Source of the DNA: Coraliomargarita sp.
GTDB taxonomy: Bacteria; Verrucomicrobiota; Verrucomicrobiia; Opitutales; Coraliomargaritaceae
Assembly: GCA_965216325.1 (NCBI GenBank)
Contig: OZ244160.1
Location: 480,001-544,000, forward strand
Length of the DNA: 64,000 nt
Direction: 5' to 3'
In this document: in pieces, positions 1 through 17,565 of the stretch
How positions within the stretch are numbered: position 1 is the stretch's first letter
How the letters are laid out: each line of letters starts with the position of its first letter
The notes under the pieces: model-generated
Seen by the model: the letters and a program-made list of their open reading frames with translations, nothing else
Told to the model about the DNA's origin: nothing
Databases searched by the model: none
Translations under genes and position numbers: made by a program

Positions 1-2
1 TT

Positions 3-3000: not shown

Positions 3001-3293
3001 TCACCACCGGAGACGAGTACTGGGCCGGCACCGATCCCAACGACAAAGACTCTAAGTTAGGGCTCGTCATTTCGGTTGAGAATGGTGTGCTGACACTCGA
3101 ATGGAATCAGCACAACCCAGCCGCCGAGCTACCGGACCTGCGACTGGAAAGTAGTGTGGATCTTGGCATTGAGTCATGGGGCTTGGTGGAAGCAATACAG
3201 CGTACTGACGGAGTGATGACGTGGACAAAACCAGATCCCCTGTCTGGAGCTGGACCCCGCACCTTCTACCGCCTTGTTGTCCCTCAAAATTAA
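3..3293 (+). CDS. Giant secreted modular protein A, 5'-truncated by the window edge (LamG-like repeats, inserted PEP-CTERM-like domain, InlB-B-like repeats, TSP3-like Ca motif, Verrucomicrobial C-terminal domain)
   Basis: The frame is open from base 3 (TNDAFKDLQ...), so the GTG at 168 is not the real start. Contains LWLDASD...WADKSGN and IEGYLAWKWGL motifs, VTA-x-P/A...YxFxxWDDGSTANPR repeats, DHDGDG...EYWAGTDPND, and ends SVDLGIESW...RTFYRLVVPQN. Confidence 0.85.
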   Translation, partial: TNDAFKDLQNPCVIVLGKWDSSSSWGNAFAAYHGESGVGWQLRQQSGAVDKLTLTVRGTAGADDPDPSVTANTSFFIGSAYRSNANTRTIRHNGTQTFTDTGDTGTITYSGSERSSIGGRYHGDAFSNPAGFLNGSIKEIIVLDNATDQEVQQIEGYLAWKWGLESNLPVDHPYKNVELRTGTVNAGNSADIDDLPKALWLDASDLDGDGVAEGSAEDGQAGGSVTTWADKSGNNRDATQTDGSLKPTYTLGSMNGQDVLTFDGTDDHLDVDLDFLAGVSHSAFIVTKVTDYDNIYGAANGNSGSNSLHVGFTGASTYRMNYWANDYYQATSANFHAGQANLVNYVWTSGSDKQVFANGYSEGNSGSAGVVGTMAGGGMIGGAVGNYFGGDIAEMIIVTGDVDADTRENIEGYLAWKWGLESSLPVDHPYASEPPASAEHMVTADVSMSAADSYNASTPISPALGVNDYYLTDSANRTPVIYGAHQADLTIKSDATQGYAELAEEMIVGDRTKAMMVWKKTDFLADRSVTLTRFKLDLFGPADLSYENRWVVEKDGQFYISDQTFSAGNQDVDASTLTWSEYTPLSGGSDAIGASATISLHDLDSIGFYVNAERTANSGDSWMRTSVYYFAVDGDEDPDLSATVNYVTYEAGPNGSITGPPSISVSYTDQEIDIVNTGASNLVQAQNFGGTGNVTINGITHTNSNSALTPASFPGPWGDPDAGTFTGDMFTLLDGIAGSDTAAASTVTISGLTPGETYLFQAYWLVNDNFGTRTMNVNLEGETLTNINANTAANEFVLISYTYTATDDTFVGTFDDPSGNEWLQGFSLQVAVPESSSSITQEVLYDGSTIAVTATPDTGYVFVNWDDGSTANPRSDTNVTSSQTYTANFAPVASPEVVYQAGANGSITGTATQVVPYNGSTTEVTAVAAAYYSFTGWDDGSTANPRSDDNVTSDQTYTANFAADVTGTNSVPHAWLAAQDPSWTTGFEALQATDHDGDGVTTGDEYWAGTDPNDKDSKLGLVISVENGVLTLEWNQHNPAAELPDLRLESSVDLGIESWGLVEAIQRTDGVMTWTKPDPLSGAGPRTFYRLVVPQN

Positions 3294-3475
3294 CCGAGTT
3301 ATCGAATTTGTCTCGTGCTGCGATTCTTAGGGGGCTTCCCCTCGAACCGTTGAAGATCTTGTTTTTTGTGCATACTGTTGCGTCCTGCGCTGGTCGACTG
3401 TTCGCTGGATCCTAAATTGCTTCGTCCTCATCGCAGACTGTCATTCAGAACACCGCATGCCAAATCGATGAAAAC
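2520..3475 (+). repeat. Copy 1 of a ~950 bp direct repeat (3' end of gene A plus ~180 bp non-coding)
   Basis: Aligns by eye with 8328-9283 (offset 5808); the last ~350 bp are almost identical; the match stops after aaatcgatgaaaac. Confidence 0.95.
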
Positions 3476-3516
3476 AAGAGTCTTGATTTTAGTCTGGCAA
3501 AGGTCGGATGGGGGGG

Positions 3517-3564
3517 GGGCGGTCGATTGACCGTGTTTTCAAGCTGCCCTTTTTCTGCTATCGT
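3517..3564 (+). promoter_or_regulatory. Palindromic operator plus sigma70-like promoter of giant protein B
   Basis: CGGTC-GATT-GACCG (3520-3533), TTTTCA (3536-3541), 17 bp, TG-c-TATCGT (3559-3564); same geometry as the site at 9321-9368. Confidence 0.65.
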
Positions 3565-3641
3565 GCAGGCTGTATCGGAGCGTCGCCGCTGCTTAAATAA
3601 TCCCCCCATACGGCTACCATTTACAAAAAAAAGACACCCCT

Positions 3642-6600
3642 ATGAAAAGATTTTTGCTCACACTCTTGTTCGCCCTCGCAACGCTAGGGCTCAGCCACGC
3701 GGACACCACCAAGGTACTCATTATTGGCTCGGATTACGACCTCGGCGATAAGTATGGATCCGACTCTGCTGCGTTTTCACCCACTGCCATTGCAAGCGAA
3801 CTCGATGAAATACTTACCAAAAACGGCCCCGGCAATGCCACGGTCACGGTGGAGGAACGCTATAATCATTATAATCCAACTGGGTTTGTATATAATGGCC
3901 ATACATTTGGGTCGAGATCTTACAACTTGACTGGATGGTTCCACTATCCGCTCCCAGCCGGTGCGGAAGAAGCTCGCTGGGCGAACCTGCGTGGAGAAGG
4001 CGGCACTGTCTGGGATTATGTCGTGATTATTGGCGACCCCTATACCATTGAAAAGACTCCCGGTATGTACGCCCAGGGGGTGGCAAAAGTAGCCGAAGAA
4101 GTTGCCAAGGGAGCCGATCCTGCGGAAGTCATCCTATTGATGAACTGGCCGGCATCCGCATCTTCATCCAGCGTGGCTCACTACAAGGAGGTTGTTTACC
4201 GCACCGGTCGCTCTGGCGGCTACAAGGTGGCACCTGCTGCCCTGGCGTGGGAGGCAGCCGGTTCTCCAAGCGGTGTCAGTCACCCGAATGCGGACGGCGC
4301 CTATATCGCCGCAGCTTCCATCTACAGCCGTATCTACAATCAAAGCGCCTCGAATTCGGGTTACACCTATAACGACACTTTGGCTGACACCGTGCAAACG
4401 ACGGTTGCAGCCAACGTTGGTCAGCCTCAATACTCCGGTGATTTTAACTTTATCAATCCCTACCTGATGCTGGGCGACAAGCGTCGGGATGTGCATTTCA
4501 GTGAAAATGGCACTAGTACAGAAGAGGATTTCAAGAACGCTGCCAAATCCGCAATGGACCGAATTGGGGTTACCTATAACACAATCGATTACTGCCCAAA
4601 CGGCAGTTCTTCATCGGCCACTTACAACAGCAATACCCCGGAGGACGACGGCCTGGGCTGGCCTGTCGGCAATGAGATGCCTATTGCTTGGAATCATGGA
4701 CGATCCTACCCAGACGGCAGAATCAAGCTGAATCCAGATTACTGGCAGCTGGGTCTTGGCTTTGAATATCAATGGAATACCACCGCCTATTCCACTGAAA
4801 TCGCCAACGATCACTACATCGCCATGATGGATTATTACGATACCAACCGGGCAAATGACAGGCTCGCAGATGCCGCGATAGGGGCACGTTGGATGCCTAC
4901 CCGCATGCTCTGGGCTCAATTTCATAAAGAATATCCGGACAGTAACCCAATGCGGGATAGCAACCACCTCAACTGGGACCAGACCCATGCGATCGGCACC
5001 TACATGTACACGCTCTACTCCGGACGTTGCCCGCTGGATCCCGAGCCGTCACCCATGACCTCGGTCTGGATGGCCCAAAAGATCGGTTATGAGACAGCCT
5101 GGCGTATGGGGCGTTGCCAGACCCGTGCTCCGGGATTCAAGGTGATGCCATCTGCAGCATCGGCAAAAACGGTCACGCCAACCAGCTCGGACACCATGTC
5201 CGTTCAGTTCATCATGGCGCCGACCCATGACGTCACCGTCAACATCGCCTCGAGCGACGTTCTAAAAGGCAAAGTCAGCCCAAGCCAGCTTACCTTCACA
5301 CCAGAGAACTACAACGTGCCCCAGACGGTCACTGTCATTGGAGAAACCGGAGCTGCCGGCTCCTTCGAATTTGATGCTCAGTTCAGCACCACATCAACCG
5401 ATCCGGTATACGATGGCCTCTCCGACACCTGGACCTACACCAACAACCGTACCCAAGGTCTAAGTCAGGTTTTAGGCAATGATGTCGTTATAGAAACCGG
5501 CGACACGACCCCGGATCTTACGGACGGCACCGACTTCGGTTATGTCGATGCCTCACTCACCAAGGTGTTCACCATTTTTAACCAGTCCGCTACCGATACC
5601 GTTAATCTCACAGATTCACCTCGTGTCACCCTCTCCGACGCATCCGGTAACTTCACACTGACGCAAGATGCCGCTTCCGGGGCGATTGCGCCGCTTGGAT
5701 CGACCACTTTTAGCATCACCTATGATGCCACTGCCGATTTAAGCGGAGGCCTGCACACAGCTACAGTCTCTATCTCCAGCTCAGACCCACTTCTCCCAAC
5801 ATACACCTTTACCGTTCAGGCCCTTAGTCCCGGACAACCTACGGTGATTAATGCAGGAAGCACCGGTGGCCAGCTCAGCGCCACACTTGAGGGACAGCTG
5901 AGTGTCGGTAGCATGGCCGATGTCATTATTTACTGGGGCACTACTGATGGTGGCACCACTCCCGAAAACTGGGAGAATGCGCAATCATTCACTGCAGTAA
6001 CTGAGGGGAATAATTTCTCTGTAGAGCTGACTGATCTGGTTGCCGGACGGCAATACTACTACCGTGTTTTTGCCAGCAATTCCAAGGGCGAGGCATGGTC
6101 CGAATCCACTGAACTGTTCATGACTGAGGCGCCTGTAGCACTGCCGAGCACCCCGGTGCGTTGGGGAGCTCCAGCAAAGTATTGGAGTATTGAGGAACTT
6201 AGTCCAGCGCTCTGGCTTGACGCTTCAGACGCCTCGACGATCACCGAGAGCGGTGGTGCGGTTTCACAGTGGGCTGACAAGAGCGGGAATAACAGAGATG
6301 CCACTCAAACAGATGGTTCGCTGAAACCGACCTATACGCTCAGTAGCATGAATGGACAAGACGTCCTTACTTTTGATGGTTCAGATGACCACCTGAATGT
6401 TGACCTTGACTTCCTCGCCGGTGTATCGCATTCGGCTTTCATTGTAACCAACGTCACAGACTACGACAATATCTATGGCGCCGCAAACGGGAACTCCGGA
6501 AGCAACAGTCTTCACGTAGGCTTCAGCGGTGCAAGTAATTATAGAATGAATTACTGGTCTAATGACTACTATCCAGCGATGTCTGCAAACTTCCATGCTG

Positions 6601-9101
6601 GACAGGCAAATATTGTAAACTATGTCTGGACCTCCGGAAGTGATAAGCAAGTCTTTGCCAATGGTTACTCCGAAGGAAACAGTGGTAGTGCTGGTGTCGT
6701 CGGCACTATGGCTGGTGGCGGGATGATCGGTGGAGCTGTTGGAAACTATTTCGGTGGCGATATTGCCGAGATGATTATTTTCACCGGAGATGTTGATGCC
6801 GAAACACGCCAACAAATCGAAGGCTATCTTGCATGGAAATGGGGGCTTGAAAGTAACCTTCCAGTGGATCATCCCTACAAGAATGTTGAACTTCGAACCG
6901 AAACCGTCAACGCTGGTAACTCAGCAGACATCAATGCTTTGCCGAAAGCTCTTTGGCTTGACGCTTCTGACGCCTCTACAATTATCGAGAGCGAAGGCTC
7001 AGTTTCACAGTGGAACGATAAGAGTGGGAACGATTTGCATCTGACTCAAGCTACTGGAACCAATCAACCTCTGTCAGGTTCTGAAACGATAGGCGGTATG
7101 AATGGTATCCTGTTTGATGGAGTTGACGATGTCCTCATCTCTTCCAGTAACCCGTTTGGTACTCAAATCAGCGATGCATCTATATTCTTTGCAATGAAGC
7201 CAAAAAGTGTCAGTACAACCGGAGTGCTCTTTTCTCTAAGTGGTGATCCTAACAGCCGTTGGCAGGCTCATATGCCCTGGTCAGACGGAAAGGCGTACTT
7301 CGACTGCGGTGGTGCAAGCGGTACAAGCAGGATCTCCGGCCCTTCCGGACTTTCGGTAAATCAGGAGCTGATTGCCAGCTTTACCTGTGAGAATGCTACC
7401 GGGAAACAGGAGGTACGGACTAACGGTAATGTTTTGATAAGTGATACGACCGGACATATTGTCAGTACTGGCGGAAATATTATGTTGGGTGGGCCAGTCA
7501 ACTTCCAGAACGTTGTTATCGGAGAGTGTATTGTTATTAACGGAACAGTGTCTGATGCCGACCGAACTATAATCGAAGGCTATCTTGCATGGAAATGGGG
7601 GCTTGAAAGTTCTCTTCCAGTGGATCATCCCTACGCCAGTGAACCGCCAGCCAGTGCAGAGCACATGGTAACAGCTGATGTTAGCATGAGTGCAGCAGAT
7701 AGCTACAATGCTTCCACACCGGTCAGCCCCGACCTTGGCGTCAACGATTATTACCTTACCGATATCACCAACCGTACGCCGGTTATTTACGGTGCGCACC
7801 AGGCCGGTCTCACCATCAAAAGCGATGCGACACAAGGCTATGCCGAGCTGGCAGAAGAGATGATTGTGGGGGATCGTACTAAAGCCATGATGATCTGGAA
7901 AAAGGCGGACTTCCTGGCGGAGCGCAGTGTCACGCTTACCCGTTTCAAACTAGACCTATTCGGGCCGGCCGATCTGAGCTATGAAAACCGCTGGGTGGTG
8001 GAGAAGGACGGACAGTTCTACATCAGCGATCAAACCTTTACGACCGGCAATCAGGATGTGGATGCATCCACCCTGACTTGGAGCGAGTACACCCCGCTAA
8101 ACGGTGGCTCCGACACCATAGGGGCATCTGCCACGATATCTCTCCATGACCTGGATTCCATTGGTTTCTATGTCAACGCTGAGCGAACGGCGAACAGCGG
8201 TGACAGCTGGATGCGGACGTCTCTGTACTATTTCGCTGTGGATGGCGACGAAGACCCGGATCTGAGCGCGACCGTCAACTACGTCACCTATGAGGCTGGT
8301 CCGAACGGAACCATTACAGGAACGGCGACCCAAGAAGTCATCTACGATGGTAGTACTACAGCAGTAACAGCTACGCCAGATACCGGCTATGTTTTTGTCA
8401 ACTGGGATGACGGCAGCACCGCCAACCCCCGTTCAGATGCCAACGTAACGAGTAGCCAGACCTATACGGCCAATTTTGCTCCGGTAGCGTCGCCCGAAGT
8501 GGTCTACCAGGCCGGCCCGAACGGGAGTATTACTGGAACCACAACCCAGGTTGTGCCCTATAACGGCAGCACCACCGAAGTGACGGCCGTAGCGGCAGCC
8601 TATTATAGTTTCAGCGGTTGGGATGACGGCAGCACAGCCAACCCCCGTTCCGATACCAATGTGACCAGCGACCAAACCTACACGGCCATCTTTACAGCCG
8701 TTGCAACGGCCGATAATGCAGTGCCACATGCGTGGCTAGCGGCGCAAGACCCGAGCTGGACCAGTGGATTTGAGGTCCTGCAGGCGACCGATCACGATGG
8801 TGATGGCGTCACCACCGGCGACGAGTACTGGGCCGGCACCGATCCCAACGACAAAGACTCCGTGCTAGCGCTCGCCGTTTCGGTTGCGAATGGAGTGCTG
8901 ACACTCGAATGGAGTCAGCACAACCCGGCCGCCGAGCTACCGGACCTACGACTGGAAAGTAGTGTGGATCTTGGCATTGAGTCATGGGGCTTGGTGGAAG
9001 CAATACAGCGTACTGACGGAGTGATGACGTGGACAAAACCAGATCCCCTGTCTGGAGCTGGACCCCGCACCTTCTACCGCCTTGTTGTCCCTCAAAATTA
9101 A
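3642..9101 (+). CDS. Giant secreted modular protein B (SGNH/DUF4886-like N-terminal region, Calx-beta-like, choice-of-anchor-D-like Ig, FN3-like, two LamG-like domains, InlB-B-like repeats, TSP3-like motif, C-terminal domain)
   Basis: Signal peptide MKRFLLTLLFALATLGLSHA; KVLIIGS, VAPAALAW...HPNADGAYIAA and DSNH motifs; LTFTPENYNVPQTVTV; DGTDFG...FTIFN; YWGTTDGGT...YYYRVFASN; same C-terminus as protein A. Confidence 0.9.
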   Translation: MKRFLLTLLFALATLGLSHADTTKVLIIGSDYDLGDKYGSDSAAFSPTAIASELDEILTKNGPGNATVTVEERYNHYNPTGFVYNGHTFGSRSYNLTGWFHYPLPAGAEEARWANLRGEGGTVWDYVVIIGDPYTIEKTPGMYAQGVAKVAEEVAKGADPAEVILLMNWPASASSSSVAHYKEVVYRTGRSGGYKVAPAALAWEAAGSPSGVSHPNADGAYIAAASIYSRIYNQSASNSGYTYNDTLADTVQTTVAANVGQPQYSGDFNFINPYLMLGDKRRDVHFSENGTSTEEDFKNAAKSAMDRIGVTYNTIDYCPNGSSSSATYNSNTPEDDGLGWPVGNEMPIAWNHGRSYPDGRIKLNPDYWQLGLGFEYQWNTTAYSTEIANDHYIAMMDYYDTNRANDRLADAAIGARWMPTRMLWAQFHKEYPDSNPMRDSNHLNWDQTHAIGTYMYTLYSGRCPLDPEPSPMTSVWMAQKIGYETAWRMGRCQTRAPGFKVMPSAASAKTVTPTSSDTMSVQFIMAPTHDVTVNIASSDVLKGKVSPSQLTFTPENYNVPQTVTVIGETGAAGSFEFDAQFSTTSTDPVYDGLSDTWTYTNNRTQGLSQVLGNDVVIETGDTTPDLTDGTDFGYVDASLTKVFTIFNQSATDTVNLTDSPRVTLSDASGNFTLTQDAASGAIAPLGSTTFSITYDATADLSGGLHTATVSISSSDPLLPTYTFTVQALSPGQPTVINAGSTGGQLSATLEGQLSVGSMADVIIYWGTTDGGTTPENWENAQSFTAVTEGNNFSVELTDLVAGRQYYYRVFASNSKGEAWSESTELFMTEAPVALPSTPVRWGAPAKYWSIEELSPALWLDASDASTITESGGAVSQWADKSGNNRDATQTDGSLKPTYTLSSMNGQDVLTFDGSDDHLNVDLDFLAGVSHSAFIVTNVTDYDNIYGAANGNSGSNSLHVGFSGASNYRMNYWSNDYYPAMSANFHAGQANIVNYVWTSGSDKQVFANGYSEGNSGSAGVVGTMAGGGMIGGAVGNYFGGDIAEMIIFTGDVDAETRQQIEGYLAWKWGLESNLPVDHPYKNVELRTETVNAGNSADINALPKALWLDASDASTIIESEGSVSQWNDKSGNDLHLTQATGTNQPLSGSETIGGMNGILFDGVDDVLISSSNPFGTQISDASIFFAMKPKSVSTTGVLFSLSGDPNSRWQAHMPWSDGKAYFDCGGASGTSRISGPSGLSVNQELIASFTCENATGKQEVRTNGNVLISDTTGHIVSTGGNIMLGGPVNFQNVVIGECIVINGTVSDADRTIIEGYLAWKWGLESSLPVDHPYASEPPASAEHMVTADVSMSAADSYNASTPVSPDLGVNDYYLTDITNRTPVIYGAHQAGLTIKSDATQGYAELAEEMIVGDRTKAMMIWKKADFLAERSVTLTRFKLDLFGPADLSYENRWVVEKDGQFYISDQTFTTGNQDVDASTLTWSEYTPLNGGSDTIGASATISLHDLDSIGFYVNAERTANSGDSWMRTSLYYFAVDGDEDPDLSATVNYVTYEAGPNGTITGTATQEVIYDGSTTAVTATPDTGYVFVNWDDGSTANPRSDANVTSSQTYTANFAPVASPEVVYQAGPNGSITGTTTQVVPYNGSTTEVTAVAAAYYSFSGWDDGSTANPRSDTNVTSDQTYTAIFTAVATADNAVPHAWLAAQDPSWTSGFEVLQATDHDGDGVTTGDEYWAGTDPNDKDSVLALAVSVANGVLTLEWSQHNPAAELPDLRLESSVDLGIESWGLVEAIQRTDGVMTWTKPDPLSGAGPRTFYRLVVPQN

Positions 9102-9283
9102 CCGAGTTATCGAATTTGTCTCGTGCTGCGATTCTTAGGGGGCTTCCCCTCGAACCGTTTAAGATCTTGTTTTTTGTGCATACTGTTGCGTCCTGCGCTG
9201 GTCGACTGTTCGCTGGATCCTAAATTGCTTCGTCCTCATCGCAGACTGTCATTCAGAACACCGCATGCCAAATCGATGAAAAC
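8328..9283 (+). repeat. Copy 2 of the ~950 bp direct repeat
   Basis: Matches 2520-3475, including the non-coding tail. Confidence 0.95.
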
Positions 9284-9320
9284 CAAAGCACACATGCTGC
9301 TGATCCAGGATTCTCGTGGG

Positions 9321-9368
9321 ACATGGTCGATTGACCGTATTGACGGATTTGTCTCGGTCTGCTATTAG
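9321..9368 (+). promoter_or_regulatory. Palindromic operator plus sigma70-like promoter of the PEP-CTERM gene
   Basis: ACATGGTCGATTGACCGTAT (9321-9340) runs into TTGACG (9340-9345), 17 bp, TG-c-TATTAG (9363-9368). Confidence 0.7.
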
Positions 9369-9440
9369 AACAATGTTCTCGATCCGATGTAGGCATTTGA
9401 GTGATCGAAGCAGGACAGTATCTCTAACCCCTCAAAACAC

Positions 9441-10244
9441 ATGATGAAATCAAACTATGAAATCAGCCTAACCGCAGCCGCTCTAATGGCGGCTGGTTCT
9501 TTCGCATCTGTACATGCCGCGACTGTTACCTGGGACGGCAGTGAGGCGAATGGTACTTGGAGTGATGGCCTCAACTGGGACTCCGGCACTGTGCCGGCAG
9601 CCAGCGACACGGTTATCATCAATAATGGCGACACTGTAAACGTGGATGTCACCCTTGCAGGAGGGCAGAACATCACCGTCAGCAATGGCTCAACCTTGAA
9701 TAATAATAGCAGCAGCTTCGCGAATGGTGCGACCATCACGTTCGAAAGCGGCGCGACGATCGACTCGGCTGAAGACAAAAACTGGTATCTTGATGGCGGA
9801 GCCAACTTTGTCTTTGAGGATGGTGCGATTGGTGCTGGTGCCTGGCTTAGCATTTATACAAGAAGTGATTTTAATGGGGGCCTCACCTTTAACCTCTCAG
9901 AAACCGGTTTCACCAAGATGGATGCTCGACGTCTTATGGCTTGGACCGACTACACCACCGATATGCCAGGAACGACATTCACAGTCGATATGGCAAGCTA
10001 CACTGGGGGAGTGGGCACCATTGCCTTGATGGATTTTGGCGCGGACACGGGCCTGACAGATGCTCAATTCCAGCTCAGTAATCTTGTCGTGGCGAATGCG
10101 GGTGGCTACACGGCCAACCTCAGCTTTGATGAGGCAAATGATATTATCCAGCTGAACGTTACCGCCATCCCCGAGCCCTCCGTATTCGCACTGCTCTCCG
10201 GTGCGCTGGCATTCGGTTGTGTGATGCTTCGCCGTCGAGCTTAG
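9441..10244 (+). CDS. PEP-CTERM sorting-domain surface protein
   Basis: N-terminal signal peptide, TWDG...WSDGLNW motif, C-terminal IPEPS + hydrophobic helix + RRRA. Confidence 0.95.
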   Translation: MMKSNYEISLTAAALMAAGSFASVHAATVTWDGSEANGTWSDGLNWDSGTVPAASDTVIINNGDTVNVDVTLAGGQNITVSNGSTLNNNSSSFANGATITFESGATIDSAEDKNWYLDGGANFVFEDGAIGAGAWLSIYTRSDFNGGLTFNLSETGFTKMDARRLMAWTDYTTDMPGTTFTVDMASYTGGVGTIALMDFGADTGLTDAQFQLSNLVVANAGGYTANLSFDEANDIIQLNVTAIPEPSVFALLSGALAFGCVMLRRRA

Positions 10245-10262
10245 AGCTTCCAAGTAATTTCG

Positions 10263-10295
10263 AAAACCCTTCGGCCCTGGCCGGAGGTTTTTTTT
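10263..10295 (+). terminator. Rho-independent terminator
   Basis: CCTTCGGC-cctg-GCCGGAGG followed by T8. Confidence 0.85.
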
Positions 10296-10296
10296 G

Positions 10297-10395
10297 GTGC
10301 GCCCGGCAGGGCGCACCTGCTTGACAGTGATTATTATGAAAATTGATAAAAGTCTGTTACTCACCCGGCAAGGGGAAGAGTTAGCCGAAAGGCAA
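10297..10395 (+). mobile_element. 5' remnant of a group IIC intron
   Basis: Starts GTGCGCCCGGCAGGGCGCAC directly after the terminator T-run, the known IIC target. Later GATAAAAGTC and GTTAGCCGAAAGGCAA resemble IIC domain I motifs (from memory). No RT ORF. Confidence 0.7.
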
Positions 10396-10753
10396 CTGCG
10401 GCACGGCGTCCGAGGTGTAAGCACCTGCCACAAGAAGGCCCAAAAGGTCACCGATAAGCTGTAGTCGCGTTGGCGAGAGTTCTTGCCAACCTTCTTCCGC
10501 TCCAGCGCTCCTGAAGGAATCCATGCACCAAACACACTCATTAGCTCTGACAGACTTGACTCCCTATAATCGCGCAACTTTGCTTCCATCTGCGCAAGGG
10601 TCGTCTTTGGTGGACGTCCGCATATTATGTGATTCATCCCGGGGAGAAAACGTTCAAGGTTTCGCATCCAAGAACAATGCATGCCAACGGCCTTTGCGTA
10701 AGTCTTTTAAGCCGAAAATTCGACTCAATTTAAGGCCTTAACTTGGGACATTC
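10396..10753 (-). mobile_element. IS4-family remnant: left end and N-terminal ~90 aa of the transposase
   Basis: Minus-strand NSRQRDYSLSVTFWAFLWQVLTPRTPCR resembles IS4-family N-termini; GAATGTCCCAAGTTAAG (10753-10737) resembles IS4-type terminal repeats; no DDE core. Confidence 0.75.
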
Positions 10754-10902
10754 GGGTTAAATCTTAAAAGAGTAGTCAGAAGTTAGTCACAGACCATCAG
10801 CAGTTTACGGCACCAGAGGGGTTCGCCAAGTTGGCGAGTCCTTAACATTCCGTAAGTCTCTTACACAGTACTAACTAGCTGCGCCCTCTACGGCAGACCT
10901 CC

Positions 10903-10953
10903 GCCTAACTCGCGAATCTAGAATGAGCGAGCGTTTATGATCCCGTGTTCGCC
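10903..10953 (-). other. attC-like recombination site
   Basis: Immediately after the stop of 10954-11652: GGCGAAC-5 nt-ATCATAAACG...CATTCTAGAT-6 nt-GTTAGGC, folding with bulged bases. The R'' box deviates from RYYYAAC. Confidence 0.45.
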
Positions 10954-11652
10954 TTATTTTGGTTGGGCCTCTGAGGCTATAGGCATGTTCAATTGTGTGA
11001 TTGCTTTGGAGTGTATTTTGGTGCTTCCCTTTTTCTGATAGAGGACGATGATTTCTCTATGTGAAGGAGTCAAACGCCACGACGAAGAAAAGAAAAGGTG
11101 CCACTTCTTCTTATCTATAGAGTGACTCATTTTAACGTTTGAGCTCTTTGCCGTGGGCTCTTCATTTTTGATGATTATTTTGGAGAGTGGGTTTATTTCC
11201 TTGTTCTTACCTCCTATCTCTATGGCTATATTAAATTTAGTGAGGTTTCTTATTAACACTGAGCCCCTTGGGAAGTGGATATCCTCAATATAGTGCCCTG
11301 TGTATTTTCCCTCCTCAGGGTAAAGTAGCACCATTCCACTCGTTGCTGCCACTGGAATTTTAACGCTTCCTATTGGAATGGATTCAGGAGTGATTATGGT
11401 GTCCTTTGGGTATAAATTTAGTGGAGATCCTTCGGTGTAATTTGCTAATACCTCAACGGATAGATGTCTTAAGCTTAATTGTAAGTTGCCTTGATTGCCA
11501 GGGATAACAATTTGTGAACGCTCTTGAATTAAGGAATCACAGGCAAATTTGAGTTTGATTGTTTTCTGTGGGTCTTGTGCATGAGCACAGCATTGGAGAA
11601 AAAGTAGAGACAGGATGATGGTGCTAAATTTTTTCATCGGGTGCTTGTTCAT
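10954..11652 (-). CDS. Exported hypothetical protein, partner of the giant PilX-like protein (paralog 2)
   Basis: Signal peptide MKKFSTIILSLLFLQCCAHA; shares LQLSxR, PRG..I.N.T and W..FSSxWR..P..RE with 11758-12537; visibly AT-rich. Confidence 0.75.
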   Translation of the reverse strand: MNKHPMKKFSTIILSLLFLQCCAHAQDPQKTIKLKFACDSLIQERSQIVIPGNQGNLQLSLRHLSVEVLANYTEGSPLNLYPKDTIITPESIPIGSVKIPVAATSGMVLLYPEEGKYTGHYIEDIHFPRGSVLIRNLTKFNIAIEIGGKNKEINPLSKIIIKNEEPTAKSSNVKMSHSIDKKKWHLFFSSSWRLTPSHREIIVLYQKKGSTKIHSKAITQLNMPIASEAQPK

Positions 11653-11757
11653 TAACCTACGGCGTGCGTCTGTATTGCTATACTAAGGGCGTTGCTAATG
11701 ACTTTTGTTCTGTTTTTTAAGGATGAACAAGGTCTGATGCGCCTATGTTCGCATACT

Positions 11758-12537
11758 TTAGTTGGGGGATCTTGGCTGGGCATTGTCCAAAATGGTTCGC
11801 AACTTGAGGCCCTTATTGTGGCTGTTCGGGGAGATTATGCAGAACTCTCTGCGGTGAGGGTGAACGCGCCACTGGGAGGAGAAGATTTTTTCCCATTGAT
11901 TGGAGCTTTCATGTTTTGAGGGTTGGAAAATAGCGATGGCTTGGGAGCTTGGGGGATTCGTGCCTTTGAAGAGGTGAAACTTGCCAGGATTGAGTTTGAT
12001 AGTTTTATTTTCTTTCAAGCGAATCGCGATGATTTGAGGCGTAACATTGAAGACGATCATGCCTCCACGGGGGATTTTCTGTGAGGGAATGGCGATGGCT
12101 TTATAGGGTAGTTTGGAGGAAGATGGGTTGCCCTTGGGGGCATCGGGGTTGGGAATGAGGATGATATGATAGTGGGTAGAGTTTTTGTTAGGAAGAGAGA
12201 GTTTGGCAAGGGGGCGAGGGGGAAGGGCATTGGAATCTTCTTGATTGAGGTTGCTGGTAGTTTTGTCCGTGATTGTTGCATTCGCAGCGACAGTGGCACT
12301 GGTGAGGTAGATTGTATTGTTGGAATCGGGAGATATTTTGACGGGCTTGGAAAAGTAGCGCGTGCTTAGCTGAAGATTCGGCATGGGCTTTCCTTCAACA
12401 TGGAAGCCTACGAGGCCATCGTGGTTTTGAGCCAGTGCAAAGAGGGCAAAGGTGAGGTGGACGGGTGCTTGTTTTGCTTCCTGGCCGGAAAGGGTCGCCG
12501 TGAAAATAAGCAGGATCAAAGCTTGGATAAATTTCAT
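11758..12537 (-). CDS. Exported hypothetical protein, partner of the giant PilX-like protein (paralog 1)
   Basis: Signal peptide MKFIQALILLIFTATLSG; 40 bp downstream of the PilX-like gene; motifs shared with paralog 2. Confidence 0.8.
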   Translation of the reverse strand: MKFIQALILLIFTATLSGQEAKQAPVHLTFALFALAQNHDGLVGFHVEGKPMPNLQLSTRYFSKPVKISPDSNNTIYLTSATVAANATITDKTTSNLNQEDSNALPPRPLAKLSLPNKNSTHYHIILIPNPDAPKGNPSSSKLPYKAIAIPSQKIPRGGMIVFNVTPQIIAIRLKENKTIKLNPGKFHLFKGTNPPSSQAIAIFQPSKHESSNQWEKIFSSQWRVHPHRREFCIISPNSHNKGLKLRTILDNAQPRSPN

Positions 12538-12577
12538 GGATAAATGGAACTTGGTTTAAGCGTAATGAGAGAGCCGT

Positions 12578-15500
12578 TTAAATTTCATCGGCACTTAACC
12601 AGCGGGAGGAAACAATCTTGAAGCGACGTCCAAAGGTGTTGTTGATATCTGTGAGGTCTGCATTCTCCGTCCCATCATCAAGTTTTCTAGGTATGAGAGG
12701 GCTGTTTTGGGGGTCGACATAGTCAGGGATACGCTGAACGATGGCCTCGCACCAAGCACGGGAAATGATGTTGTCGTTCACGTCCCGGGTATCTCCATAA
12801 GCGCGTATTGTGAAGGTGTCTCCCCGAACGGTGAGCTGGTTGCCGATGGCTTGGAGGAGGTCAGACTGCATCAGGTATCCGGGCATTCCAGCGAAGCGGG
12901 AGCCTTTGGCGGCACGGGAGTTGGGGTAGTCGGCGGGGAGGGATGTGACCATTGCTGCGGCGTCTTTGTAAGCTCCGTTAAGTGAACTGGATGAGCCTGT
13001 GCCATTGTAGTCATTGTCGAATTCATCTGAGTCAATGGCTGCTTGCAGGGTCCCAGAGACGCCCATGGCATCATCTGAGAGCCGATGGTTGATAAAGTCT
13101 GCCATGTTGAGGAAAGGGCCCCGTTTTTTAATTTGGGTGACAATGTCTTCGGCCAGGGTGTCGATGTCACTTTCAGTTAAGAGCCTGAGACCACTCCAGG
13201 TTGTGCTGTTGCCAGGGCTTCCGCTGTCTTGGCTGCTCCCACTGGCAAGACGGAAGCGACTGAGGGCGACATGCTCGCCTTTGGTGTCGATGATTCCCTT
13301 ATCGCCTGTTCTGGAGTCGAGGTAAGGGATTTTCCGGTGTCGCAGTCCCCAGAGAAATGATTTCCACACCTCAACAGAGGTGGTGTTGACATTAAAGGGG
13401 GCTTCCAGCATGAGGTAGCGGGCACTCTTAAGCCATGCGTCAGGGTCGTCAGCGGCGAGTTCATTGACAATTTGGTCACTGCTCTTGCTGATGAAAGGTT
13501 TGAGGTGGTGGTTGAGAAGAGGTTTGAATTTGGCTAAATCAGTGGTGAAGAAATCTTCGGCGACCGTTTTCAAATCACGGATTACTGTGGTTGTTGATGT
13601 TTGGGGGATGAGAGATGAAAAGTAGTAAGAGTCCCATAGTGCTTCGTTGGTAAGGAAAAGCTGGTCCCAATAATCGTCAAAGACATTGATATTGGTTGCG
13701 ACGGTATTGCCATCGGGGTGTCCTCGATCTTCTCCAAGGTTATTCCGGTGATAAACCGAGCTTGGCCCAATCATGGGGTGCGCGTGGCTATTTCCGATAC
13801 CAACACCAACAGATCCTCCTCTGTGCGAGATGTGTTTGTAGTCATAGGTGTTATGTTCGCCACCGTATGCTTCGAAATTTGGTTTGGGAATGTCATCTTG
13901 CAGATGTTGTCGGGTGCGAGCGCGGGCGGAGTCCATTCGCATTGTAGCGAAGGCGGCTAGGCTGGTGGGCGGAGAGGTTGGAAGTTCGAAGAGAGGCACC
14001 TGAGTTTGCCCGGTGGAGGCTCCCCAACCGCCACCAAAGTAGCCATTCCGACCATCCACTTGCACATACTGAGAGACTTCGGTGTCTCCGTTGACGGGGC
14101 GAAAGTGGATTTTGTAGGGAGAATTTGCCCGGCTGAGGGGGGCGGGGTTGAGAAGGACGTTGCAGAGGTTGGCGGGAGAGGCATGGAGGAAGGTTCGATT
14201 GCGGAAATCTTGGGCGTAATCGGGGGTGGTATTTGTATAGCTAAAGGTCTCGGCGCCTTTAGTCATGACGGATACAATGGCAACAGGCTGGGGGAGCTCG
14301 CTACTGAAGTCCCATGCCGCTCTCTCGGCCGCGGAGTTTTTGACCAGCCAGGCACCGCTATCAGCGTTGTCGGGGTCGTGTTCAACCTCAGCAGTCGAGA
14401 ACCAATTGATTGAGACGGAACCAAAGGGGACAGTTCCTAAGTTGGAATTGGTGGTAAGAAGCTCACCGTCGCGATCATAGATTCCTCTGTTTGCACCTGG
14501 ACCGTTCCAGAAGAAAGAGGAGATAGCCTGTGGTTGATTTCCCAGAATACGGTTTTCGGTAAATTGATTGTTGGGATTTGAAAATCTGAGTGAAAATGAA
14601 GGGTTTTCAGTGGGTTCTACTGAATCGAGCACATCAATACGAAGTTGCATTCCGCGGGTAGCCGGAGTGTCTTCAGGTGGTTTGTAGCCAAAGGTCGCAT
14701 TGTAGGCTTGCCCATCCACTTCGTCTTCGGTTGAAAAGGCAATGACCTCCCCGGGTTTAAAAATGATTTCATTGCCCTCGCCAAAAGCTGTTGTGACATA
14801 TCCTTTAAAGAAATCACCAAGATTAAGTCTACGGTTTGTGGCGACGGCGTCAGTTCCTTTATAGACATTGTAGTAAAGGTTGGTGACATTTCCTAGAGAG
14901 CAAGAAAGGCTGAACTTTCCAGGGTCCAGGCGAAGCTCTACATTGTAAGGATTCCAGAGGTGAAAAGTGGGGACCCCAACGATGTAGCAATCATAGCCGT
15001 CAGCCACTTCTTCTGTGCGAGTGCAGATGACCCAGGTTTGTCGTAAGAGTACGGGTTGGCGATAGTATCCATCTGTGTCTAGTGCTAATTTTTTCACATT
15101 ATCAAAGTCATTTGTGTGACCCATGAGGAAGCGCTTGGTGTATGGGGTTGCTGTTTCCCAGTTCAGCCTTTGACCGATGCCTTCGGGTTCATTGCCTGAT
15201 GTGAAATCTGTTCCAAAGGGTCGATAGAGGCGGTAATATTGATGCATTTGACGCCAAGAAACGGGAGCGATGAAAGGATTCTGTGGTTCAATGGAGGCGA
15301 GTTCCCCTATCATCGGGCGGATGGGAGTGTCAAATTCCACACTGTTAAAGACTGTGGAGCTTACCATATTCGTAGGAAGATTTTCTTGTTCAAAAAGAAG
15401 GCTGAGATCTTTTTTCAGACGCCCTGAGCGAACATCAACGAGGAGGCCACGGTTCAATGGCGCAATATGGTGATAGTGTTGCCCCAACTTATCAGGAGTG

Positions 15501-16342
15501 TTCAGTCCAAGTTCGTGGTTTCGAAAAGTGTGGTATTTATCTAGACTGGCTGGATCCAAGTTCATGGATTCTAATCCATCTAAGTGATCCATTCCAGAAT
15601 GATTCGGATAGGCCGCTTGGTTTTGGGCAACCTGGAAATTGTCGTTTGGGGTGGGGGCTTTGCCAATGGCGGCGGTAATGGACTGGGAGTTGTCTTTTAC
15701 CCACCAGGCGTAGCCCCCGGGGATTTTAGTATTGGTTTTGACCAGGGGGACCAGGACTTTGTCGGAGGCAGAGCCGCTTGTTCCAAGAGTTCTTTGAGAA
15801 ACAAGTTCAACAGCTTGACCTGGAAAATCGTTTAAAGCCGAATCTCTTTCATTGACCCACGGGGCATCTGCACTGGAACTTACCAGCCAACGGCGAAAGA
15901 GCTTTTTAGATCTGCCTTGTTCATTATAGGTGTCCTGGATGCTGAGAGTTGATCCATCGGGGAGGGTTTTTGGATCGGTTAGCCAAGTGTCCCAAGCTTC
16001 TGTGACTCCAAGGTAGTTCTTGTGGGTGACTCCATCAATTTCGGGTGTATCCGGGGCAGTGTCCAGTAAGGACGCCGAGAAGGAGATGCGCCCATCGGGG
16101 CCCATTTCTTTCTGCAAATTCCCGATGGCGATCATGAGAGCCATTTTTGCATTGGCTCGAGCAGCCTCGGAGACTGCTCTTTGATTTGCAGCACGAGTCT
16201 CAATGGTGGTGAGACTAACCAGGGTCAGAACAATCAGAATGAGTAGGCTCGACAAGGAGATCGTCACAACCAATGCAAAGCCATGATTTTGAGATAGACC
16301 AAGGTTCCTTCTGCTCGATGGTTTCTTTTTTGAGTGATCCAT
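12578..16342 (-). CDS. Giant PilX/GspK-like minor (pseudo)pilin of the Verrucomicrobial type (resembles Verru_Chthon cassette A)
   Basis: Basic leader, then G|FALVVT hydrophobic helix lacking Glu5; ARANAKMAL..AIGNLQKEMGPD; PFNVNTTSVEVW; RGDTFTIRAYG; C-terminal FGRRFKIVSSRWLSADEI. Confidence 0.85.
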   Translation of the reverse strand: MDHSKKKPSSRRNLGLSQNHGFALVVTISLSSLLILIVLTLVSLTTIETRAANQRAVSEAARANAKMALMIAIGNLQKEMGPDGRISFSASLLDTAPDTPEIDGVTHKNYLGVTEAWDTWLTDPKTLPDGSTLSIQDTYNEQGRSKKLFRRWLVSSSADAPWVNERDSALNDFPGQAVELVSQRTLGTSGSASDKVLVPLVKTNTKIPGGYAWWVKDNSQSITAAIGKAPTPNDNFQVAQNQAAYPNHSGMDHLDGLESMNLDPASLDKYHTFRNHELGLNTPDKLGQHYHHIAPLNRGLLVDVRSGRLKKDLSLLFEQENLPTNMVSSTVFNSVEFDTPIRPMIGELASIEPQNPFIAPVSWRQMHQYYRLYRPFGTDFTSGNEPEGIGQRLNWETATPYTKRFLMGHTNDFDNVKKLALDTDGYYRQPVLLRQTWVICTRTEEVADGYDCYIVGVPTFHLWNPYNVELRLDPGKFSLSCSLGNVTNLYYNVYKGTDAVATNRRLNLGDFFKGYVTTAFGEGNEIIFKPGEVIAFSTEDEVDGQAYNATFGYKPPEDTPATRGMQLRIDVLDSVEPTENPSFSLRFSNPNNQFTENRILGNQPQAISSFFWNGPGANRGIYDRDGELLTTNSNLGTVPFGSVSINWFSTAEVEHDPDNADSGAWLVKNSAAERAAWDFSSELPQPVAIVSVMTKGAETFSYTNTTPDYAQDFRNRTFLHASPANLCNVLLNPAPLSRANSPYKIHFRPVNGDTEVSQYVQVDGRNGYFGGGWGASTGQTQVPLFELPTSPPTSLAAFATMRMDSARARTRQHLQDDIPKPNFEAYGGEHNTYDYKHISHRGGSVGVGIGNSHAHPMIGPSSVYHRNNLGEDRGHPDGNTVATNINVFDDYWDQLFLTNEALWDSYYFSSLIPQTSTTTVIRDLKTVAEDFFTTDLAKFKPLLNHHLKPFISKSSDQIVNELAADDPDAWLKSARYLMLEAPFNVNTTSVEVWKSFLWGLRHRKIPYLDSRTGDKGIIDTKGEHVALSRFRLASGSSQDSGSPGNSTTWSGLRLLTESDIDTLAEDIVTQIKKRGPFLNMADFINHRLSDDAMGVSGTLQAAIDSDEFDNDYNGTGSSSSLNGAYKDAAAMVTSLPADYPNSRAAKGSRFAGMPGYLMQSDLLQAIGNQLTVRGDTFTIRAYGDTRDVNDNIISRAWCEAIVQRIPDYVDPQNSPLIPRKLDDGTENADLTDINNTFGRRFKIVSSRWLSADEI

Positions 16343-16393
16343 GCTACCTAAATGAAAATAAATATTATTCTATTATTATAAAAATAACCACTT

Positions 16394-16423
16394 TGACAAC
16401 ACGGCTGATCGGCCGTGTTTACA
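16394..16423. promoter_or_regulatory. Palindromic operator between divergent promoters
   Basis: AACACGGC-TGATCG-GCCGTGTT (16398-16419), flanked symmetrically by -35-like TTTACA (+) and TTGTCA (-), with AT-rich -10 candidates about 16 bp beyond each. Confidence 0.7.
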
Positions 16424-16469
16424 CATTTAATTTTTATAGTAGTATGATGTCTTAACATTTCATACTCTT

Positions 16470-17345
16470 ATGCGTCTGGGTCTTAATACTTTTCTTGTTA
16501 GCTCGGGCTTCACCGATGCAGATATCCCTTTGATTTCGCAATTCAAGGCCTATGGAGCAGAGGTGATTGAGCTCGCGATCGTAGAGCCCGCATCCGTCAC
16601 TGTGTCCAAATTATTGACTGCGCTGGAGGCGGCCGAGCTGCCTTGCCCGATTATATGTGGTGCATTCCCCCCTGGGCGTGACCTACGTGGCAGTTCCGAA
16701 GAAGTGGCGGCGACGGTGAGGTATTTGAATGAGCTGATCGATTTGGCTGTGCAATTGCACTCAAAGGTGGTCTGTGGGCCGTTTTATTCGGCAACCGGTC
16801 GAGCCGGAAGTCATACCGCTGAAGCGCGTGAGGAACAGTTGGAGCAGATTGCGACGGCCTTGAAGCCAGTCTGCGCAAAAGCGGAGGCGGCGGGCATTGT
16901 GTTGGCCATGGAGCCGCTCAACCGTTTTGAGACAGATTGTGTGAATACACTACAGCAGGCAGTTGATTTAATCGATCGTGTGGGGAGTCCTGCCCTTAAA
17001 ATACACATGGATACATTCCATATGAATATAGAGGAGGAGGACTCCGCTGCGGCGATCCTCAACTATGCGCCCTATATCGGTCATGTGCATGCGAGTGCGA
17101 GTCACCGTGGGCTGTTGGGGCACGATCAGGTCGACTGGCAGGGAGTGCTCGGTGCGTTGCACGGTGTTGGCTACGACGGCGATATTGTGATCGAAAGCTT
17201 CTCTGCGGGCAATGAAGTGATTGCCCGGGCCGCTGCGATTTGGCGCCCCTTATATGAGTACCCTGAAACCTTGGCGGTGGAGGGCCTGAAATTTCTGCAA
17301 GATACTTGGCAACATGTGTGCTCAAAAAACTGTCAACCCGTATAG
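16470..17345 (+). CDS. Sugar phosphate isomerase/epimerase (D-psicose/D-tagatose 3-epimerase-like TIM barrel)
   Basis: CGPFYS, EPLNRFE, DTFHMNIEE, HVH...HRG and ESF metal-binding motifs. Confidence 0.9.
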   Translation: MRLGLNTFLVSSGFTDADIPLISQFKAYGAEVIELAIVEPASVTVSKLLTALEAAELPCPIICGAFPPGRDLRGSSEEVAATVRYLNELIDLAVQLHSKVVCGPFYSATGRAGSHTAEAREEQLEQIATALKPVCAKAEAAGIVLAMEPLNRFETDCVNTLQQAVDLIDRVGSPALKIHMDTFHMNIEEEDSAAAILNYAPYIGHVHASASHRGLLGHDQVDWQGVLGALHGVGYDGDIVIESFSAGNEVIARAAAIWRPLYEYPETLAVEGLKFLQDTWQHVCSKNCQPV

Positions 17346-17381
17346 TTCTTATGAAAAAAGGAACGCTTGATTGAATTTTGT

Positions 17382-17522
17382 ATGATACGAAAAATCACTC
17401 AATCACTCAATCACTCAATCACTCAATCACTCAGTCTGCTACTCGCCGCGGTTGCGCTGTGCAGCACTGCATCTGCGAAACCGAATCAGTTTCGGAAAAT
17501 ATCCAATCTTCAAAATAAATAA
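17382..17522 (+). pseudogene. Signal-peptide-only remnant, possibly the 5' end of a deleted sulfatase gene
   Basis: Translates as MIRKITQSLNHSITQSLSLLLAAVALCSTASA-KPNQFRKISNLQNK*; A-x-A cleavage site followed by KPN. Confidence 0.45.
17393..17432 (+). repeat. Tandem repeat (AATCACTC)x5
   Basis: Five perfect 8-mer copies read directly. Confidence 0.97.
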
Positions 17523-17565
17523 TATCCAACCATCTAAATAAAAAAACATCCAAAATCAGTTACTT

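Follow-up and report, generated by a model that had tools for sequence, protein, structure and literature searches.

A 20-bp palindrome, designated box-1 (consensus ACACGGTCAATTGACCGTGT), is present in 20 copies in the genome of Coraliomargarita sp., and all of these copies lie within a single 94-kb glycan island, where they adjoin the -35-like hexamers of predicted promoters. Judged from the sequence, box-1 is a real, sharply delimited regulon operator of this one island. The window that was analyzed is a stretch of 64,000 nucleotides (contig OZ244160.1 of assembly GCA_965216325.1), corresponding to positions 480001-544000 of a single-contig genome of 3,064,510 bp (24 kb masked). From three boxes in the window, GGGCGGTCGATTGACCGTGT, ACATGGTCGATTGACCGTAT and ACACGGCTGATCGGCCGTGT, an earlier reading (the original prediction) had proposed an undescribed regulon of four transcription units under one activator. 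The three strings were verified at their positions (Table 1), and the central claim of a shared site abutting the -35 held; the size did not, since the regulon has 20 boxes serving ~22 promoter directions and is about five times larger than four units.

The strict pattern ACACGG-N8-CCGTGT has 12 matches in the 3.06-Mb genome, all 12 between 405 and 497 kb, and the copies beyond these were recovered by a relaxed core pattern. The genome-wide scan with a position weight matrix (PWM) that the original prediction had suggested was performed with a symmetrised matrix and returned 20 sites of 21.6-35.9 bits, every one inside 402415-496418 (genome coordinates, as below unless the window is named), that is, within 3.1% of the genome; the best match after these 20 scored 13.5 bits. 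Since the matrix was derived from the same 20 sites that it scores, the strict-pattern count is the independent and unbiased figure. The slightly relaxed pattern AYACGG-N8-CCGTRT occurs 16 times here, compared to at most four times per genome in 400 genomes sampled across the phylum. All 20 copies of box-1 are intergenic. Eight of the promoters form four recently duplicated pairs (402415/405456, 433222/435612, 461815/463359 and 477140/483517), and when duplicates are counted once there are ~15 independent promoter contexts with unrelated flanks. Beyond the 20 bp and the promoter hexamers, the copies have nothing in common except within these four pairs, indicating that it is an architecture that is conserved and not a repeat unit. 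The lack of conserved flanks and of any copy outside the island likewise sets box-1 apart from repetitive extragenic palindromic (REP) sequences and miniature inverted-repeat transposable elements.

Promoter register and island content

When the boxes are oriented towards their genes, the final T of the box doubles as the first T of a sigma-70-type -35-like hexamer (TTTACA, TTGACG, TTGACC, TTGCCA, TTGTCA, TTGTCG, TTGAGG or TTTTCA), followed by a spacer of 15-19 bp, mostly 16-17, and a -10 that is often TGn-extended. At this fixed register, 25 of the 40 box sides match TTGACA at four or more of six positions, compared to 9.8% of random genome positions, and at least one such side is found in 19 of the 20 boxes, the exception being 437886 with TATGCA. 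The boxes at 402415, 405456 and 496399 each serve two divergent promoters, and the box at 473646 points to the minus strand. Because the -10 hexamer begins 22-23 nt past the box, box-1 is predicted to span ~-54 to -35, with its center at -43.5/-44.5. The promoter elements that had been read at the three window boxes, namely a -35-like hexamer in register with each box, TG-c-TAT -10 boxes 17 bp beyond the first two, and a TTGTCA in mirror position on the minus strand at the third, are all present in the sequence (Table 1). A further copy had been expected upstream of giant surface protein gene A, and it was found at 477140, 105 nt before the true ATG of this gene. The statement that the sites lie outside the duplicated block is correct for the block visible in the first reading, but the promoter at window 3517 is itself a duplicate of the gene A promoter, the 36 bases that follow the box, from -35 to -10, being 97% identical between the two.

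Two kinds of homopolymer run were also seen in these regulatory regions. Runs of T10-T12 fill the -35/-10 spacer of three PEP-CTERM promoters (461815-461870, 463359-463415 and 473892-473945), so that these near-duplicate promoters differ in spacer length (16, 18 and 19 bp), and a G10 run at window 3510-3519 takes the place of the left outer arm of the box at window 3517. Such runs might act as phase-variable switches by strand slippage.

The boxed units encode GH127-like enzymes, GFO/IDH/MocA oxidoreductases with 3-keto-disaccharide hydrolases, at least six sulfatases, one GH95 and two GH29 fucosidases, MGH1/GH63-like enzymes, an aldose epimerase, a ThuA protein, the operon of a prepilin-like 1254-aa protein, a TIM-barrel/oxidoreductase pair and three giant Flg_new_2 surface proteins (2712 aa, about 2010 aa and 1819 aa). 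By these predicted functions, the locus is a sulfated-fucan-type utilization island. It also encodes eight small PEP-CTERM-type proteins (seven recognized by Pfam, and a 280-aa protein at 469065 by its C-terminal sequence only), of which seven are boxed and one, at 465615, is not. No SusC/SusD genes were present among the island proteins scanned. The GC content of the island (51.3%) is ~2 standard deviations below the genome mean (53.3%, standard deviation 1.0%, 95-kb windows), which hints at acquisition. An ISL3-family transposase lies at the left edge of the island (398953-400191). One box, at 470463-470482, is an orphan: it lies 25 bp past the stop codon of a convergent ThuA gene, and on its other side there is only a start-less, signal-peptide-like remnant (KTITIATFIATAGFASA...), which is probably a decayed PEP-CTERM-type gene.

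Candidate regulator and its relatives

The original prediction had placed the regulator gene outside the window, in the upstream part of the island, and a candidate is indeed encoded there. Among the island proteins, Pfam identified only two sets of DNA-binding candidates: a REC-GerE response regulator with an adjacent HisKA_3 kinase (454216-456834), and a HipB/HipA toxin-antitoxin pair (hipB encoding an XRE-type helix-turn-helix protein; 475285-476842) without a box of its own. The response regulator (215 aa; 454216-454863, minus strand; PF00072, E 1.6e-21; PF00196, E 5.6e-15) matches NarL over its full length (1a04, E 3.6e-23) and also VraR, DesR, DevR (3c3w, E 5.5e-18) and RcsB. Directly upstream and in the same orientation is the gene of a 655-aa kinase (HisKA_3 and HATPase_c), in which an N-terminal helix is followed by ~340 residues in the periplasm and a long helix leads to the kinase core. 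When the periplasmic part was modelled alone with 15 homologues, two beta-sandwiches were predicted (pLDDT 83.9, pTM 0.82), and the closest folds were the tandem CBM32 of ZmpB (7jnd, E 1e-5), fucosidases bearing carbohydrate-binding modules (8ayr and 4zrx), neuropilin b1b2 and factor VIII C1C2. In 4 of the 25 family members, Pfam matched the sensor only weakly to F5_F8_type_C (E 0.0036 at best), and a fold search with the full-length kinase model returned kinase cores only, that of DesK being the best.

A second kinase/regulator pair is encoded at 2404813-2407494 in the same genome (kinase 25% and regulator 36% identical to the island pair), and it is surrounded by a different palindrome. This sequence, ATCGCACrTATGyGCGAT (box-2), has eight copies between 2382962 and 2423161, which occupy the top eight PWM ranks genome-wide (24.6-28.1 bits); the next matches score 22.2 (elsewhere in the genome) and 19.2 bits (40 bp from one of the eight). 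In seven of the eight copies, a -10-like hexamer starts 21-22 nt past the box, by inspection without a -35 consensus, and, as far as these predicted elements go, this is the classical activator-dependent layout. The 40-kb box-2 island (2382962-2423178) encodes SASA/AXE1/GDSL esterases, NPCBM, GH63-like, melibiase and GFO/IDH/MocA proteins and giant proteins. There may be a ninth site at 2147759, and a weak site stands in tandem at 2382922.

Relatives of the kinase were collected from genome contigs by an alignment-based search with two conserved kinase-core peptide patterns, which yielded 591 relatives; ~35 of the 79 loci retained match the kinase over nearly its full length. A single-protein search of the genome contigs had found no relatives of the kinase. 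The loci come from Verrucomicrobiota (labelled Akkermansiaceae, Puniceicoccaceae/Coraliomargarita, Rubritalea, Haloferula and Luteolibacter) and Kiritimatiellota (Pontiella), and an open reading frame for a NarL-type regulator follows the kinase in 17 of 20 homologue loci, with no reading frame in one locus and picks that do not align as regulators in two. Two metagenome contigs (L097 and L098, kinase 82% identical) carry ACACGGTCAAACAACCGTGT and ACACGGCCAAACTACCGTGT upstream of the kinase gene, adjoining a TTTACA -35 that points away from the kinase in the same orientation and register as here, and the sequence surrounding these boxes is unlike that of this genome. In L097, one box (25.9 bits) lies between the kinase gene and a divergent 748-aa gene and a second (32.2 bits) at the contig edge; the box in L098 scores 23.3 bits. 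A further locus with a close kinase (L007, 81% identical) begins within the kinase gene and is therefore uninformative on an upstream box. In Rubritalea marina, where the kinase is 37% identical, ATACGGTCAAACAACCGTAT and ATACGGCCAAATAGCCGTAT are the two best PWM matches of a 21.9-kb locus (21.2 and 19.2 bits), and both are located in the 207-bp gap that separates the kinase-regulator operon from a divergent PEP-CTERM / sulfatase / DUF7133-cytochrome c / ThuA operon. Scanning the whole Rubritalea marina genome with a degenerate pattern gave 11 matches, compared to 5 for the control, and only the two kinase-side sites have the box core. The 60 nearest genomes contain no box cluster (two have single unrelated matches) and no close orthologue of the kinase (53% at best, and no more than 36% within the genus).

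Palindromes near the kinase start (20-mers with at least 8 of 10 pairs, from -700 to +100) were present in 10 of 27 loci and were box-1-like only in L014 and L019. The sequence ACACGCAYAAATRTGCGTGG abuts TTTACA in the same register in two loci, 129 bp (L019) and ~9.4 kb (L023) upstream of a kinase paralogue. A third type, GCTACTGAAATCAGTAGG, occurs three times around a kinase paralogue of a same-genus genome (L111, G002:C15; positions 9075, 9801 and 13646), and the similar TGTCTACCAATCAGTAGACA lies at position 9822 of L035, 179 bp upstream of a Pontiellaceae homologue, while a Pontiella locus has CGCTGGTCAATTGACCAGCT followed by TGCAAA; these variants are single observations. The recognition helix of the regulator goes with the type of box, QYTE(S/N/R) with GGTCAA-type boxes and (Y/H)(V/I)R with CGCAC- or CTAC-type boxes, in a qualitative comparison that is uncorrected for phylogeny.

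Other recurrent palindromes were seen in the genomes compared. A single conserved palindrome, ATACGGCATTATTGCCGTAT, recurs in four genomes of one other Verrucomicrobiota family (f46: G075, G080, G097 and G263), and ATACGGACTAATCTCCGTAT recurs in three of another (f57: G128, G254 and G376), with close variants in G112 and G124; these are probably operators of other conserved regulators. Two loci of genome G026 (L115 and L116) contain GC-rich hairpin repeats, e.g. ACGCCTGCCCTCAGGCGT and GCGCTTAGGGACAAGCGC, in intergenic inverted pairs with a REP-like look.

Proposed mechanism and its alternatives

We think it reasonably likely that box-1 is the operator of a single factor that co-regulates the whole 94-kb glycan island, and that this factor is most likely the NarL/LuxR-type regulator encoded in the island. 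Four findings connect the box with this two-component system: box copies next to the kinase gene in related metagenome contigs, the pair of box-like sites next to the homologous kinase in Rubritalea marina, the separate palindrome around the paralogous pair of this genome, and the lack of box clusters in 460 sampled relatives. The box would then probably be the site of a response-regulator dimer near -44 with an activating role. In the mechanism we propose, the membrane HisKA_3 kinase would sense a glycan or oligosaccharide in the periplasm through its two modelled tandem CBM32/discoidin-like beta-sandwiches and would phosphorylate the regulator, a dimer of which would bind the 20-bp palindrome with one GerE domain per half-site (ACACGGYCRA); positioned at ~-43.5/-44.5 and touching the -35, it would aid sigma-70 RNA polymerase at the ~22 promoter directions in a class II-like manner comparable to that of the lux box or Dev box. 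Class II-like activation is favored by three features: the contact of the box with the -35, the regulator family to which the candidate binder belongs, and the absence of a -35 from the box-2 promoters. From predicted -10 boxes, the center is placed at ~-43.5/-44.5 for box-1 and at ~-42.5/-43.5 for box-2, the class II position being ~-41.5/-42.5; the poor or absent -35 of class II promoters is not seen at box-1, where 19 of the 20 boxes adjoin a hexamer with at least four of six matches to TTGACA. The sites, their confinement to the island, the constant register with the -35/-10 elements, the gene content, the domain families and the joint occurrence of box and kinase/regulator pair in other genomes are observations, whereas we infer the identity of the binding protein, whether it activates or represses, its signal and the positions of the transcription start sites; the label of activator that the original prediction gave to the box-1 factor is one that we likewise infer.

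Among the alternatives, repression is the most probable; we consider it unlikely but worth weighing. The regulator, or another dimeric factor, seated on the upstream edge of the -35 could block sigma region 4 or the alpha C-terminal domain until released by the glycan. The box-1 promoters would suit such a scheme, as they match TTGACA at 4-5 of six positions, many have a TGn-extended -10, and the minus-strand promoter at window 16399 is top-ranked in the first 20 kb of the window. Strong promoters of this kind usually need no activator, and catabolic islands are often kept off by repressors. However, most repressors act at the spacer, the -10 or the start region, none of which box-1 overlaps in any copy, and the paralogous box-2 promoters, with their box in the same position, are without a -35, which argues for activation in the family. 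NarL-family regulators that bind beside a -35 are typically activators. For DevR, the case described in PMC3177182 is activation.

It is distinctly less probable that a different protein binds box-1, such as the HipB-type XRE protein of the island, an unannotated small island protein or a regulator encoded elsewhere in the genome. The box is linked to the two-component system by co-location only, the hipBA pair lies inside the island, several small island reading frames have no Pfam match, and HipB operators are palindromes with an 8-bp gap. On the other hand, no box is located directly upstream of hipB (none between 474714 and 475285; the nearest, at 473892, serves a PEP-CTERM gene), and the boxes stand at about 20 unrelated catabolic promoters, which is not the pattern of an autoregulatory operator. 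The 13 proteins scanned in the Rubritalea locus contain no HTH_31/XRE or HipA domain, and the kinase and the regulator are the only genes known to be shared with L097 and L098, whose genes lay outside this domain scan. The clustering of a second, different palindrome around the second kinase/regulator paralogue also speaks against another binder.

Finally, we find it highly improbable that box-1 is not a protein operator and is instead an RNA terminator or stabilizer hairpin, or a recombination or repeat element spread with the island duplications: although most copies fold (8-bp stem and 4-nt loop, -9 to -14 kcal/mol), some lie just past the stop codon of the upstream gene and several arose by duplication, no copy is followed by the T-run of a terminator (the 8 bases after it include at most three T), positions 7 and 14 fail to pair in 3 of 20 copies, so that the half-sites vary independently and not in compensating pairs, the flanks are unrelated between families with the register to the -35/-10 fixed, window 1-26000 has no Rfam match at the gathering score, and the box is kept upstream of the kinase gene in other organisms, abutting an outward TTTACA -35.

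Several observations weigh against the reading of box-1 as the activating operator of the island regulator, and against its extension to the kinase family. The central position of box-1 is derived from predicted -10 boxes only. The good -35 and extended -10 of the box-1 promoters mean that they may need no help to fire, in keeping with repression as much as with activation, and good -35 hexamers are unusual for class II activation. Several box-1 promoters are recent duplicates, and the 20 sites therefore represent fewer than 20 independent events; in addition, the box at 470463 has no intact downstream gene. The kinase-regulator operon itself is without a box-driven promoter, the neighboring box facing a divergent sulfatase gene. 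Outside this genome, the GGTCAATTGACC core (up to two mismatches) is not enriched in 18 near-full-length homologue loci (5.08 per 100 kb compared to 5.47 in the control) and occurs at 2.54 per 100 kb in 16 distant homologue loci; GGTCRWWYGACC is not enriched in five distant homologue genomes either (2-8 counts compared to 3-10 in controls). No comparable palindrome was found in most of the other homologue loci, and among 13 further paralogue loci (G002, G026 and G006) a repeated AT-centered palindrome was present in L111 only, with five of the 13 having GC-rich hairpin repeats judged REP- or terminator-like and seven having none. The general form of the hypothesis, in which widely distributed kinases with a tandem CBM32-like sensor in Verrucomicrobiota and their Planctomycetes-Verrucomicrobia-Chlamydiae (PVC) relatives would each be paired with a NarL-type regulator that reads a private 18-20-bp palindrome at ~-43 of the units of its own glycan island, is one that we put forward tentatively and with some doubt.

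Window features, known systems and meaning of the regulon

The features of the window and the transcription units that the boxes are predicted to serve are collected in Table 1. No Pfam match was obtained for the proteins of the minus-strand operon at window 10954-16342. In addition, a 75-bp block is repeated 3' of the giant genes A and B (window 3400-3474 and 9209-9283); the two blocks end ~40 bp ahead of the boxes at window 3517 and 9321, and a short ATG-initiated frame runs from the block into each box.

Table 1. Box-1 copies, predicted promoter elements and boxed transcription units (window positions, except where marked as genome).
Feature	Position	Strand	Remarks
Giant surface protein gene A, 3' part	1-3293	+	Flg_new_2 and fn3 domains; true ATG outside the window at genome 477264
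Gene A promoter box	genome 477140-477159		Distance to the gene A ATG the same as at gene B (105 nt)
Box-1 copy	3517-3536		GGGCGGTCGATTGACCGTGT; weakest copy, 21.6 bits
-35-like TTTTCA	3536-3541	+	Shares its first T with the end of the box
Extended -10 TGC-TATCGT	3556-3564	+	17-bp spacer
Giant surface protein gene B	3642-9101	+	1819 aa, Flg_new_2 and fn3-like; predicted target of box 3517
Box-1 copy	9321-9340		ACATGGTCGATTGACCGTAT; 27.8 bits
-35-like TTGACG	9340-9345	+	
Extended -10-like TGC-TATTAG	9360-9368	+	17-bp spacer; without the usual final T
PEP-CTERM / G8-domain secreted protein	9441-10244	+	267 aa; predicted target of box 9321
Box-1 copy	16399-16418		ACACGGCTGATCGGCCGTGT; 28.0 bits; two divergent promoters
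Promoter TTGTCA/16 bp/AATAAT	16372-16399	-	Highest-ranking promoter-like match within the first 20 kb
Promoter TTTACA/16 bp/TAGTAT	16418-16445	+	-35 at 16418-16423
Operon: 1254-aa protein with prepilin-like N-terminus, 259-aa and 232-aa secreted proteins	10954-16342	-	Predicted target of the 16399 minus-strand promoter
Xylose-isomerase-like TIM-barrel protein and GFO/IDH/MocA oxidoreductase with twin-arginine translocation (TAT) signal	16470-18837	+	Predicted target of the 16418 plus-strand promoter

As a kind, a palindromic box of the NarL/LuxR family at the -35 is already known. According to PMC3177182, the C-terminal-domain dimer of DevR recognizes an 18-20-bp palindrome through the motif GGGACT in each half, and the DevR/DosR system of Mycobacterium tuberculosis resembles the one described here in having a NarL-subfamily regulator, a G-rich half-site motif, a palindrome with an A/T center, tens of co-regulated promoters and a promoter-proximal box beside the -35. 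The systems differ in the half-site (ACACGGTCA here, GGGACT for DevR), in the number of boxes (one per promoter here, obligatory tandem boxes for DevR), in the signal (here presumably a glycan, through a CBM32-like domain in the periplasm; for DevR hypoxia, through GAF/haem domains), and in phylum and target genes. LuxR and TraR share the GerE-type helix-turn-helix and an 18-20-bp palindrome just upstream of or overlapping the -35, the lux box being centered at -42.5. The box-2 promoters fit this layout (center ~-42.5 to -43.5, no -35 consensus), whereas box-1 adjoins a good -35 and does not replace it, and LuxR-type proteins sense acyl-homoserine lactones by an N-terminal ligand domain, in contrast to the receiver domain and partner kinase of the island regulator. 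In NarL/NarX, VraR/VraS and DesR/DesK, the kinase cores and regulators belong to the families found here, the two genes are neighbors and the DNA sites are inverted repeats, but the kinases have a four-helix or membrane sensor in place of the modelled pair of CBM32/discoidin-like beta-sandwiches, and the regulon here, unlike theirs, is a catabolic glycan island. In the polysaccharide-utilization loci (PULs) of Bacteroidota, hybrid two-component systems (HTCS), SusR or ECF sigma/anti-sigma pairs act as local sensors that activate contiguous glycan-degrading genes on substrate, and the system proposed here would be alike in function, as a local sensor for a contiguous set of glycan-degrading genes; it differs in having a separate kinase and NarL-type regulator instead of a one-chain HTCS with AraC output, and an explicit cis-element repeated across the units of the island.

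As an instance, box-1 is new in its organism group, type of sensor, island-wide coverage and the presence of a second private code in the same genome. No published description of the motif or its regulation was found in literature searches (motif core GGTCAATTGACC; Verrucomicrobia glycan regulation). Marine Verrucomicrobiota are considered to specialize in degrading sulfated algal glycans rich in fucose. Two genome-ecology papers (PMC8857213 and PMC13174399), searched by term, do not mention two-component systems, promoters or histidine kinases, and "regulat" appears only in a title in the reference list.

The confinement of the operator to the island allows a functional regulon of ~45 genes to be delimited from sequence, and the presence of PEP-CTERM and giant surface proteins within the boxed regulon ties these proteins to glycan use. 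The candidate regulator-sensor pair offers a handle on the inducing glycan and on the digestion of sulfated algal sugars, and the boxed promoters could supply ready-made inducible elements in a phylum where genetic tools are scarce. That one genome has a second regulon with a code of its own is suggestive of a general design. If this holds for the family, changes of recognition helix and box would insulate paralogous glycan regulons in one cell, as with the two pairs of this genome; regulons and substrate-specific islands could be delimited in bacteria without SusC/D markers; and the boxes may represent the first readable cis-regulatory code for polysaccharide-utilization loci in Verrucomicrobiota and their PVC relatives.

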